NCBI GenBank assembly: GCA_964016885.1
Contig: CAXHJY010001354.1
Coordinates: 1-41,183, forward strand
From: Eledone cirrhosa
Lineage: Eukaryota
DNA: 41,183 nucleotides
Direction of reading: 5' to 3'
Below the pieces are notes generated by a model. It was not told where the DNA came from and made no database searches. It saw only the letters and a list, made by a program, of their open reading frames with translations. This document shows positions 2,593 to 37,530 of the stretch, piece after piece (position 1 is the first letter of the stretch; each line of letters begins with the position of its first letter). Position numbers and translations under genes: made by a program.

Positions 2593-2754
2593 AGTTAAAA
2601 GAATAGAGGTGTAACACACAAGTTATTATATATTGGTAAACGGAATAGAAAATGCTGACAAATTGTTCACAGTTGAAAAATGGTTTAATTAGGAATAAAA
2701 GAGTATTAGTGATTGTATGGGTTAGTATTCAGTTGTGGTTTAAAGTTTTTAAGT

Positions 2755-2791
2755 TTTTACCGGTTGCGCATTTCTAAATGCTTTTCAAAAA
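2755..2791 (-). ncRNA. Minimal type I hammerhead-like motif (U3-A8 variant, A13 changed to C)
   Basis: Minus strand reads UUU-UUGAAAA-GCAUU(UAGA)AAUGC-GCAA-C-CG-GUA-AAA. The core has GCAA instead of GAAA, so probably inactive. Confidence 0.6.
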
Positions 2792-2865
2792 TAATTTTGA
2801 GATAGAGTGTCCTTGCTGTTTGCTCTGATCAGAGCAAACAGCACGGACACTCTATCTCAAAATTA

Positions 2866-2902
2866 TTTTGAAAAGCATTTAGAAATGCGCAACCCGGTAA
2901 AA
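2866..2902 (+). ncRNA. Mirror copy of the hammerhead-like motif in the right arm
   Basis: UU-UUGAAAA-GCAUU(UAGA)AAUGC-GCAA-C-CCG-GUA-AA; same A13C change plus one extra C in stem III. Confidence 0.5.
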
Positions 2903-3024
2903 ACTTAAAAACTTTAAACCACAACTGAATACTAACCCATACAATCACTAATACTCTTTTATTCCTAATTAAACCATTTTTCAACTGTGAACAATTTGTC
3001 AGCATTTTCTATTCCGTTTACCAA

Positions 3025-4101
3025 TATATATGTATATATATATATATGTATGTATGTATGTATATATATATATATATGTATGTATGTATGTATGTATGTA
3101 TATATATATATATATGTATGTATGTATGTATGTATATATATATATATATATATGTATGTATATATATGTATGTATATATATGTATGTATATGTATATATG
3201 TATGTATATATGTATATATATGTATATATGTATGTATATATATGTATATATATGTATATGTATGTATATATATGTATATATATGTATATATATGTATATA
3301 TGTATATATATGTATATATATGTATATATATGTATATATGTATATATATGTATATATATGTATATATATGTATATATATGTATATATGTATATATATGTA
3401 TATATGTGTGTATATATGTATATATATGTATATATGTGTATATATGTATATATGTATATATGTATATATGTATATATATGTATATATGTATATATATGTG
3501 TATATATGTATATATATGTATATATGTATATATATGTATATATATGTATATATGTATATATATGTATATATATGTATATATGTATATATATGTATATATG
3601 TGTATATATGTATATATTTATATATGTATATATATGTATATATATGTATATATATGTATATATATGTATATATGTATATATATGTATATATGTATATATG
3701 TATATATATATATATGTATATATCTGTATGTATATGTATATATGTGTATATGTGTATATGTATATATGTGTATATGTATATATGTGTATATGTATATATG
3801 TGTATATGTATATATGTGTATATGTATATATGTGTATATGTATATATGTGTATATGTATATATGTGTATATGTATATATGTGTATATGTATATATGTGTA
3901 TATGTGTATATGTGTATATGTGTATATGTATATATGTGTATATGTATATATGTGTATATGTATATATGTGTATATGTGTATATGTATATATGTATATATG
4001 TGTATATGTATATATGTATATATGTGTATATGTATATGTGTATATATATATATATGTATATGTGTATATATATATATGTATATGTGTATATATATATGTG
4101 T
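3025..4101. repeat. (TATG/TATATG/TGTG)-type compound microsatellite
   Basis: Directly visible. Confidence 0.97.
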
Positions 4102-4157
4102 AAAAGGTAAACAGAAATAACAACAAAATCGGTACAGTATATGGAAGGTGTATATTA

Positions 4158-4237
4158 GGTTAACGCTTGAAATAGCAGGAAGAGGGACTTCACGTTTCTG
4201 ACGCTAGTCCTTCATTAGAAGAAAGAATGAGAAATAC
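4158..4237 (-). mobile_element. Decayed HHR-bearing repeat fragment (PLE terminal-repeat-like), homologous to 32917-32996
   Basis: Plus-strand ttaacgcttgaaatagcagga...cgttt...ttcattagaagaaagaatgagaaata aligns by eye with 32917-32996. Minus strand 4188-4221 reads CUU-CUAAUGA-A-GGAC(UAGC)GUCA-GAAAC-GUG-AAG. Confidence 0.55.
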
Positions 4238-4576
4238 AATAGTTTGAGGGGACGGGCGGGTTGGAATTGAAAAAAATGTCTTTAGATAAAAATAACAGGT
4301 CCATTCATGCTGACCAAGCATAAATTTATATGCTGTGTAGATATATACATGCATATATATATTTATATGCTGTGTAGATATATACATACATATATTTATA
4401 TGTTGTGTAGATATATATACATGCATACATATATGTATATGTTGTATATATACTTACATATATCTATGGATGTCATTGTACTCGAAGAAGGTATTCATAA
4501 TAAAGAGCGCATTACTAGCCCAGATCTAATAAGGTATCTCCTGTCGTAGCTCGGAGTCGCTGTTCTTTTCAATCAC

Positions 4577-4612
4577 TTTCAACGTATTGGACGATAGTTC
4601 TTCTTCAGGGAA
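4577..4612 (-). ncRNA. Degenerate minimal hammerhead motif
   Basis: UUCC-CUGAAGA-A-GAAC(UAUC)GUCC-AAUAC-GUU-GAAA; intact CUGANGA box and correct spacing, but GAAAC is mutated. Confidence 0.4.
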
Positions 4613-34596: not shown

Positions 34597-34634
34597 CCTT
34601 TACCGGTTTCGCAGTTCTTTTGCTTTTCAAAAGG
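34597..34634 (-). ncRNA. Minimal type I hammerhead ribozyme, left-arm copy
   Basis: CCUU-UUGAAAA-GCA(AAAGAAC)UGC-GAAA-C-CG-GUA-AAGG; stem II shortened by one pair. Confidence 0.7.
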
Positions 34635-34751
34635 TGAGTTGAGATGGAGCTCGAAAAACCTGGTTTGCGAGCCAGTTCTTCCATATAAAACAAGTAACAT
34701 TTAGAGACCAACCAGATGTGAGAAAAACCACAGACCCTCCATCTCAACTCA

Positions 34752-34789
34752 CCTTTTGAAAAGCAGAAGAACTGCGAAACCGGTAAAGG
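34752..34789 (+). ncRNA. Minimal type I hammerhead ribozyme with compensatory U3-A8 core; predicted cleavage after 34785
   Basis: CCUU-UUGAAAA-GCAG(AAGAA)CUGC-GAAA-C-CG-GUA-AAGG: 4-bp stem I, 4-bp stem II closed by G-C, palindromic ACCGGU stem III, GUA triplet. Confidence 0.8.
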
Positions 34790-34924
34790 AACCAAATAAA
34801 TATATATATTTTTAAAAAATAAGACTTCAGTTGCATTTTCGATTTCATCCCTTTTTCTTTATACTTCCACTCGTGTAGGACACCTCGGTTATTTTTCATT
34901 TTGTAAAAAAAACCTCACTTTCTA

Positions 34925-36627
34925 ATATATATATATATATATATATATATATATACACACATATATATATATATATATATATATATATATATATATATAT
35001 ATATATACATATATATACATATATATACATATATATATATACATATATATACATATATATATATACATATATACATATATATACATATATATATATACAT
35101 ATGTACATATATATATATATATACACATATACATATATATATATATACATATATATATATATATATATATATATATATATATACATATATATATATATAT
35201 ATATATATACATATATATATACATATATATATATACATATACATATTTATATACATATATACATATACATATATACATATACATATATATATATATACAT
35301 ATATACATATATATACATATATACATATATATACATATATACATATATACATATATATATATATATATACATATATACATATATATACATATATATATAT
35401 ATATATATATATATATATACATATATACATATATATATATATATATATATATATATATATATATATATATATACATATATATATATATATATATACATAT
35501 ATATATATATATATATACATATATATATATATATATATACATATATATATATATATATATACATATATATATATATATATATACATATATATATATATAT
35601 ATATATACATATATATATATATATATATATATATATATATATATATATACATATATATATATATATATATATATATACATATATATATATATATATATAC
35701 ATATATATATATATATATATATATATACATATATATATACATATATACATATATATATATATATATACATATATACATATATATATATACATATATACAT
35801 ATATATATATATACATATATACATATATATATATATATATATACATATATACATATATATATATATACATATATATATATATACATATATATATATACAT
35901 ATATACATATATATATATATATATATATATATATACATATATATATATATATATATACATATATATATATATACATATATATATATATATATATACATAT
36001 ATATATATATACATATATATATATATATATATACATATATATATATATACATATATATATATATATATATACATATATATATATATACATATATATATAT
36101 ATATATATACATATATATATATATACATATATATATATATATATACATATATATATATATACATATATACATATATATATATACATATATATATATATAC
36201 ATATATACATATATATATATATATATATATATATACATATACATATATACATATATATATATATATACATATATATATACATATATATACATATATATAT
36301 ACATATATATATATATATATATATATACATATATATATACATATATATATATACATATATATATACATATATATACATATATATATACATATATATATAC
36401 ATATATATATACATATATATACATATATATATACATATATATACATATATATACATATATATATACATATATATACATATATATACATATATATATACAT
36501 ATATATACATATATATATATATATATATATATATACATATACATATATATATATACATATATATATATATACATATACATATATATATATACATATATAT
36601 ACATATATACATATATATATATATATG
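34925..36627. repeat. Long (TA)n microsatellite interrupted by CA (TATACA-type)
   Basis: Directly visible; reverse-complement style of 1-2592. Confidence 0.98.
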
Positions 36628-36996
36628 CATTTATAGATGTAAATATGTATGTATGTATTTATCTATCTATTAATTTACCTACCTGTTCCTACCTAGCTAG
36701 CAACCTATCTATCTATCTATCTATCTATCTATCTATCTATCTATCTATCTATCTATCTATCTAACCATCCATCATAATATCTATCATTCTAGCCCTCTCT
36801 ATATCAGAATTACTTTATCACTGCACCTCTCTAAGTTATCCCAAAACTAATTGCTTCTCAAAACGCTGATGAATTCTCCCACCTACCCCATTTATACCCC
36901 AATCATTTTTCATCTCACGTCGCTGGAAAATCTAAATAGCAAACGAGTGCATCATTATATATATAAATATATATATATATATATATATATATATAT

Positions 36997-37070
36997 AGAG
37001 AGAGAGAGAGAGAGAGAGAGAGAGAGAGAGAGAGAGAGAGAGAGAGAGAGAGAGAGAGAGAGAGAGAGAG
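36997..37070. repeat. (GA)n microsatellite
   Basis: Directly visible. Confidence 0.97.
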
Positions 37071-37190
37071 CTTTATGATAGATCGATAAGTATATATAGG
37101 TATTATAGATATACATACACCCTCCAGTATCTCTCTCTTTATCTATCTATCTATCTATCTATCTATCTATCTATCTATCTATATATATAG

Positions 37191-37530
37191 TGTTATACTT
37201 TGGGAGGGTCATGTTGCCAATAAGAAACACACGCACCAGTTGCTTTCACTTCAATTTATTATAAATTAAATTTATAAATTTAGGAATTTATAAATTTCCG
37301 GTTGGTTGGTTCCACAACCAGATGATTGTTCATATATTGTCAAAGTTCTTTCGTCACACATTCTGTGACCTCTTCAGTGAAATTTATAAATTTAATTTAT
37401 AATAAATTGAAGTGAAAGCAACTGGTGCGTGTGTTTCTTATTGGCCACATGACCCTCCCAAAGTATAACAATATCGGTTTCAACACACGTTTTCAGATAA
37501 GGAATCTTGCTAAACAAATTCAGAAACGAA
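37191..37530. mobile_element. Foldback element: 91-bp inverted arms (37191-37281 / 37380-37470), 98-bp spacer containing an HHR, ~60-nt one-sided tail
   Basis: Arms differ at one base; flanked by (TCTA)n/(TA)n on the left and (TA)n on the right. Confidence 0.75.
37336..37383 (-). ncRNA. Minimal type I hammerhead ribozyme
   Basis: AUUUCA-CUGAAGA-G-GUCACA(GAAUG)UGUGAC-GAAA-G-AA-CUU-UGACAAU: intact CUGANGA and GAAA boxes, 6-bp stem II, tiny stem III, CUU triplet. Confidence 0.72.

Follow-up and report, generated by a model that had tools for sequence, protein, structure and literature searches.

Are short foldback DNA elements that carry hammerhead ribozyme motifs and no gene a mobile class in their own right, or a form of something already described? 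This question is raised by contig CAXHJY010001354.1 of the Eledone cirrhosa assembly GCA_964016885.1, of which positions 1 to 41,183 (the window) were analysed. The window is microsatellite-rich DNA of animal type, with simple-repeat masking covering 16,380 of its 41,183 bases, and holds three foldback elements, here called E1, E2 and E3. The initial annotation had proposed that they may form an undescribed, retrozyme-like foldback class. We found that E1-E3 are real and that, on present evidence, they belong to the known class of inverted, tailed insertions of Penelope-like elements (PLEs) and not to a new retrozyme class: the architecture is published for PLEs, the junctions of the E2 family are varied and the polarity of E3 is opposite to that of the other two. 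What is new is a hint that, a little upstream of the ribozyme, 5' ends recur at positions that are homologous between two lineages.

Arm alignment placed the three foldbacks where they had been annotated, with near-identical arms. The E1 arms (2627-2828 and 2829-3030) agree in 200 of 203 columns and leave no spacer, those of E2 (34522-34649 and 34737-34863) agree in 126 of 128 columns around a spacer of 87 nt, and those of E3 (37187-37281 and 37380-37474) in 93 of 95 columns around one of 98 nt; within each element, the arms mismatch at 2-3 positions. The one-sided extensions, given earlier as 34-60 nt, measure 34 nt in E1, about 59 nt in E2 and 56 nt in E3. All flanks are of the (TA) type, from which any target site duplication (TSD) is indistinguishable. 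No plausible gene was found among the reading frames examined in the unique halves of E1-E3, and 17 frames of the window had no Pfam match at curated cut-offs. The description of the elements as (TA)-flanked, lacking an evident TSD and lacking an open reading frame (ORF) was thus borne out.

E1 and E2 share one plan, with arms head-to-head and the tail at the 3' end, as read from the arm alignment and the hammerhead polarity. In E1, the sense arm, which resembles a PLE pseudo-long terminal repeat (pLTR), runs on the minus strand from fold to tail (2627-2828) and continues into the 34 nt one-sided 3' tail (2593-2626, minus strand). The inverted, tail-less arm (2829-3030, plus strand) contains a more degenerate hammerhead copy at 2865-2902. 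The fold centre between 2828 and 2829 is a perfect palindrome and lies 40 nt upstream of U3 of the hammerhead. In E2, the inverted, tail-less arm (34522-34649, minus strand), with a hammerhead copy at 34597-34634, is followed by a spacer (34650-34736, plus strand) that consists of the sense sequence upstream of the arm and whose 3' part is homologous to E1 beside the fold. The sense arm (34737-34863, plus strand) ends at an internal TATA, where tail-less copies meet (TA)n, and the one-sided 3' tail extends from 34864 to about 34922 (plus strand).

The elements had been said to share no obvious sequence outside the ribozyme, which does not hold for E1 and E2. The two align over about 29 nt on the upstream side of the core, a likeness equalled by 10 of 5000 shuffles, and both tails carry the motif GTGT-N3-ACACCTC, which occurs nowhere else in the window. 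The tail-less ends of both lie at TATA and align with each other. Downstream of the ribozyme the likeness is weak overall, 103 of 2000 shuffles being as good. E1 and E2 are likely very short insertions of two related PLE families, in which the ORF between the arms is absent.

A single design for all three, as first described, is contradicted by E3, which has no detectable sequence in common with E1 or E2. Its hammerhead occurs once, within the spacer, and is oriented away from the extension; because of this polarity, the arms are read as tail-to-tail and the extension as 5' sequence. The inverted arm (37187-37281, plus strand) stands on the 3' side of the hammerhead-sense copy. The spacer (37282-37379, minus strand) contains the hammerhead, about 45 nt with an AC-rich end and a repeat of an AT-rich palindrome, and it is preceded in hammerhead sense by the other arm (37380-37474, minus strand) and by the 56 nt extension (37475-37530, minus strand), which is therefore not a 3' tail. 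We propose that E3 represents a different PLE family, in which the fold lies at the 3' end. Hairpins in the tails and in the E3 spacer are no more stable than those of shuffled sequence (z -0.16 to -1.43) and are not taken as structures. A hammerhead-like string in the E3 extension (37470-37500, minus strand) resembles the E1/E2 motif; it was rejected, having neither helix I nor helix II and not matching the descriptor introduced below.

We searched both strands of the whole window with a relaxed descriptor of the minimal type I hammerhead, which was written after the motifs had been seen, so that the resulting rates are somewhat flattering. There were four matches, all within the elements: one in E1 (minus strand, U3 at 2788), one on each strand of E2 (U3 at 34756 on the plus and 34630 on the minus strand) and one in E3 (minus strand, at 37377). 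The stretch 4101-34500 had none. Dinucleotide shuffles of the unique half produced a match in 15 of 2000 cases for E1 (one core mismatch allowed), 6 of 2000 for E2 and 3 of 2000 for E3. The E2 motif (34752-34789, plus strand) has a U3-A8 core, a palindromic helix III and a predicted cut after 34785. The E1 motif (2755-2791, minus strand) also has the U3-A8 core and the palindromic helix III; it carries an A13C change, both E1 arms reading GCAA instead of GAAA, and its activity is doubtful. The E3 motif (37340-37380, minus strand) has a C3-G8 core and an extra base before helix II. The claim of a minimal type I hammerhead in every element therefore stands as far as the descriptor goes, whereas E1 is degenerate and Rfam gave no hammerhead match to E2 or E3 up to E = 10. 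Hammerheads were likewise absent among the 150 of 241 whole-window Rfam matches listed, and Rfam microRNA matches were dismissed as a mere reflection of the hairpin shape. Two elements had been credited with the motif on both strands; this is true of E2, whereas the right-arm copy of E1, in which helix III holds an extra C and the upstream part is one T shorter, does not match the descriptor.

Over the four E1/E2 copies, helix pairing is kept in 94% of cells, and two helix I pairs are changed on both sides; these changes are weak as support, coming from just two lineages, with 109 of 500 shuffles reaching the same count. Among the 40 listed of 96 variants of the E2 family, all from positions other than 34785-34824, none falls in the hammerhead core or the helix II strands, one falls in loop II and three fall in or beside the 5' strand of helix I. 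Transcripts of whole elements are predicted to fold into duplexes of -323 (E1) and -221 (E2) kcal/mol, and the E1 and E2 hammerheads would be sequestered in such full hairpin transcripts because they would be locked in the long duplex. As a separate observation, the plus strand at 34783-34878 has a GT within hammerhead helix III and, in the tail, a run of pyrimidines that closes with AG. Speculatively, this pair could mark an intron in the 5' untranslated region like that of Drosophila virilis Penelope; the matching AG is absent in E1.

A run search with E2 listed 21 sequencing runs, of which 16 contain part of the element and 3 contain at least half of its words; runs with a low share were left unused, and there was no RNA run containing E2 among those listed. 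We aligned the sense half of E2 (34650-34924) to 4 of the 21. It was covered by 4267 contigs in run X1, by 2387 raw restriction-site-associated DNA (RAD) reads in X19 and by 8 contigs in X4, and E2 belongs to a high-copy family. Summed depth in X1, which is not copy number, was 916k in the 34720s, 528k in the 34710s, 302k in the 34700s and 4k at 34650; the X19 depths at the same places were 1011, 709, 451 and 46. The last of these drops is partly an edge effect and partly due to divergence clipping at 34679, where 286 reads continue with related sequence. At 34667, 34675 and 34678, the window letters differ from nearly all aligned copies in all four runs, which either private changes or assembly errors would explain.

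The loose ends of these alignments gather at 34713-34716 on the plus strand, a recurrent 5' end or foldback point of other E2-family copies that E2 itself does not use. In X1, 22, 13 and 20 contigs have loose 5' ends at 34713, 34715 and 34716, respectively, and in X19, 173 reads do so at 34714. Compared by eye with the reverse strand, the consensus at 34713 agrees with a foldback in 18 of 30 letters, including all of the final 9, and that at 34715 in 17 of 28, including 12 of the final 13, with a short loop that differs from the one at 34713. The consensi at 34716 (X1) and 34714 (X19) end in (TA)n. The distance to U3 is 40 nt both from the perfect fold of E1 and from position 34716, and, judged from the alignment, the recurrent 5' end of the E2 family is homologous to the fold point of E1. 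This recurrence of ends and fold points speaks against purely random PLE debris.

The junctions vary in more than their loops. There is one opposite-strand joint (34717/34753) and one 35-nt skip, and four further joints with intervening letters are of unspecified kind, some of which might be local tandem repeats. At the other end, a tail-less end at 34863 is joined to (TA)n in 37 X1 contigs and 2 X4 contigs. The geometry of E2 itself looks rare within its family. Among E2-family copies one position, 34713-34716, recurs, while loops differ, some ends lack an arm and other joints occur.

Could the foldbacks be artefacts of assembly or library preparation? Long AT-rich palindromes are prone to them, and none of the contigs or reads listed for the four runs spans one whole element. 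The arms of each element differ at 2-3 positions, however, and depth in X4 is 9.6 in the spacer, 22-25 in the outer arm and 9.4 in the tail, as expected of a true foldback (about 1:2:1). The many tail-less ends at 34863 and the homology of the ends in E1 and E2 point the same way, and we regard an artefact as extremely unlikely.

The same X4 depths would also suit discrete, non-autonomous foldback retroposons, in which the entire hairpin RNA is the transposing unit. The high copy number, the recurrent fold point and its matching position in E1 and the E2 family fit this idea, as do two variants whose arms are apparently concordant at 34850. On the other side, loops vary where the folds recur, an inverted arm is missing from some copies, five more joints differ, and E1, E2 and E3 have no common geometry; moreover, the hairpin would sequester the E1 and E2 hammerheads, and tandem arrays such as those of retrozymes are absent. 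We consider transposition of the hairpin improbable.

The foldbacks are most likely short PLE ends in the inverted form that has already been described. Beyond this, we lean, with some reserve, towards a reading in which short PLE cDNAs run from an internal start near the tail to a preferred RNA 5' end and snap back afresh at each insertion. First, (TA)n would be nicked in trans by the reverse transcriptase/GIY-YIG protein of a PLE, as the literature suggests. Reverse transcription would begin inside the RNA, from the end of the tail or from the internal TATA where tail-less copies end; both alternative 3' ends are present in the reads, and the start mechanism is borrowed from Anolis PAc. The enzyme would frequently halt at a preferred point some 40 nt above the hammerhead core; this is probably the RNA 5' end, and the product would resemble a strong-stop cDNA. 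The cDNA end could then be joined to (TA)n, or it could snap back and copy itself as far as the internal TATA, which would yield the inverted tail-less arm. Joined and foldback outcomes both occur among the loose ends, the snap-back itself being our interpretation of the latter. Because one position is found with different loops, the hairpin appears to be newly made at each insertion. At 34850, both E2 arms carry a minority C where the X1 majority is T, which is consistent with a single template. E1 would be the common form and E2 a longer, more randomly truncated one, and the hammerheads would be an inheritance from the pLTR. A ribozyme cut as the origin of the recurrent 5' end was rejected, since the predicted cut, after 34785, lies about 70 nt downstream.

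Two other routes could also give head-to-head arms. In the first, full insertions (inverted pLTR, pLTR, ORF, pLTR, tail) would have lost their ORF by recombination between the direct pLTRs, and the fold would be the 5' boundary of the pLTR. In Adineta, solo pLTRs are reported, as are palindromes at the 5' ends of pLTRs (PMC3846280), and the route would give the anatomy of E1. Such loss leaves the recurrence of the boundary in many copies and two lineages unexplained; the E2 spacer contains sequence upstream of that boundary, and some ends are joined directly to (TA)n at the same place, so that we judge this route unlikely. In the second, twin priming, a PLE dimer would nick both (TA)n strands, and two cDNAs, one from each reverse transcription start, would be joined head-to-head without any snap-back. 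PAc indeed cuts and extends both strands, has two adjacent starts and is predicted to form a dimer (PMC11167929), and the tail on one arm only and the unequal arms of E2 would follow naturally. However, the perfect or near-perfect palindromic junctions (E1, and loops of 2-3 nt in the reads) fit self-priming better, and the tail-to-tail form of E3 would not be produced. Twin priming therefore seems distinctly unlikely.

A stronger version of snap-back priming can be entertained tentatively. PLEs here may generate one short product of defined extent, which runs from the internal tail start to a fixed 5' end of the RNA, 40 nt above the hammerhead, and would be what strong-stop DNA is to retroviruses. 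This product would integrate by itself and abundantly, whether or not it carries a snap-back arm. It may even be re-mobilised as a non-autonomous mini-element of about 210-240 nt, and full-length PLEs would then owe their inverted pLTR to this intermediate, as its footprint.

Several observations weigh against the snap-back reading. The read evidence concerns E2 only, and about 30-45% of the depth runs on upstream of 34713, which makes this a preferred rather than a fixed 5' end. Each loose-end consensus blends several sequences (agreement 0.42-0.6) and was compared by eye, and there are 127 loose ends besides those listed. Among the joints listed for the four runs, that of E2 itself (34650/34737) is missing, although it sits at the edge of the aligned stretch. 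The E1/E2 type of hammerhead is absent from the Hydra and Chlamys motifs in File S2 of PMC8557442. No PLE ORF linked to E1, E2 or E3 was found, and the four metagenome loci with the E2 hammerhead pattern were rejected, as their helices are missing and they look like chance occurrences in DNA of 42-51% GC. The PLE origin is far more secure than the particular route: no parent ORF was linked to the elements, but the anatomy matches published PLE insertions, and the connection to PLEs made in the initial annotation is well supported.

In viral contigs, the E2 hammerhead pattern occurred at 0 loci. Some E2-family reads extend upstream of the sense half of E2, with 30 letters visible. Within the window, a decayed relic of a PLE reverse transcriptase thumb and linker lies at 18377-18718 (minus strand). 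A word-indexed protein search with it gave no match; a full HMMER search gave 26 homologues, of which 16 had no Pfam match at curated cut-offs. The homologues have YRDD and a CxCX5C linker, and this linker is the one described for the Hydra clade (PMC8557442). The relic is not a demonstrated parent of E1 or E2, because Hydra hammerheads differ from theirs.

The window contains other repeats. A fourth, older foldback at 21703-22291 has arms that agree in 248 of 300 columns around a 12 nt loop, and it gave no hammerhead match; it resembles two non-autonomous Helitron-type elements set head-to-head. Nearby, at about 21538-21697, there is a partial copy related to it. At 15815-16150, a unit of about 55 bp is repeated in inverted and tandem orientation and forms a hairpin, again with no hammerhead match, and 23457-23616 holds a weak inverted repeat (69% over 162 columns). 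An interspersed repeat of about 150-180 bp that resembles a short interspersed nuclear element is present in at least seven copies (12072-12250, 15082-15161, 17900-18062, 19871-20227, 22511-22704, 28871-29031 and 31562-31811).

As a new class, E1-E3 would be a modest finding, the architecture being known. Passages of PMC8557442 and PMC11167929 treat the origin of the inverted repeats and one-sided tails of PLEs as an open question, and high-copy short insertions with clustered 5' ends and variable loops offer natural junctions for telling snap-back, twin priming and recombination apart. The clustered 5' ends also predict an RNA 5' end. In the literature searched, most subscription papers and Repbase being outside its coverage, there was no class of ORF-less hairpin PLEs, no strong-stop product and no recurrent 5' end.

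The inverted copy, the junction palindrome, the one-sided tail, the microsatellite targets and the opposite-strand hammerheads are all published for PLEs. PMC8557442 describes insertions with an inverted, 5'-truncated copy at the 5' end and a tail of 30-40 bp at one end, and notes that the microsatellite bias of PLEs hides TSDs. PMC3846280 reports inverted pLTRs of 181-218 bp, junction palindromes interpreted as self-priming, a 31 bp tail and solo pLTRs, the tail-to-tail arrangement being the less frequent one; PMC8969392 counts inverted pLTRs and short 3' extensions among the routine features of PLEs. According to PMC11167929, reverse transcription starts at two internal sites that bracket the tail, the tail being the stretch between them; both strands are cleaved at AT-rich DNA, and the hammerhead is dispensable for insertion in vitro.

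Non-LTR retrozymes (bioRxiv 10.64898/2026.07.22.740005) are, like E1-E3, ORF-less and carry a type I hammerhead; their mobilisation is attributed to PLEs and their origin to pLTRs. They are head-to-tail tandem repeats of such pLTR-derived units that give circular RNA, whereas E1-E3 are single inverted pairs with no tandem unit. PLEs of the Hydra clade (PMC8557442) target (TA)n as E1-E3 do and have a 3' hammerhead, one of them with a 5' inverted copy. The Hydra-clade hammerheads of File S2 all have C3-G8 and a helix III of 3-4 bp, whereas E1 and E2 have U3-A8 and a minimal, palindromic helix III; E3 shares C3-G8 but has a helix III of 2 bp. Short motifs of E1-E3, sought as exact words that line breaks may mask, were absent from the Naiad, Chlamys and Hydra consensus files of the same source.

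Closer parallels to the motifs are given for metazoan PLEs in PMC4209133, where minimal type I hammerheads with a tiny palindromic helix III include a U3-A8 variant in Schistosoma Cercyon. U3-A8 cores (as in E1 and E2), an extra base before helix II (as in E3), mostly truncated copies and dual motifs on opposite strands are all found there, the dual motifs lying 100-700 bp apart and being attributed to truncated PLEs; activity in vitro is low. E1 and E2 differ from these hammerheads in having no extra base between 9 and 10.1 and shorter helices, and E1 in its A13C change.

With endonuclease-positive (EN+) PLE insertions (PMC3846280, PMC8557442) the comparison covers the whole element. E1-E3 differ from them in having neither an ORF nor a second direct pLTR between the arms, and the 30-40 bp of known PLE tails is exceeded by the E2 tail, at about 59 nt, and by the E3 extension, at 56 nt. 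A 5' end that recurs over many copies goes unreported in the passages of both papers on PLE insertions. In other respects E1 and E2 resemble EN+ insertions, with head-to-head inverted copies of about 130-200 bp, a junction palindrome, a hammerhead in the repeat and a tail on one arm, and all three elements share with them the microsatellite target that obscures a TSD, the tail-to-tail form being like that of E3.

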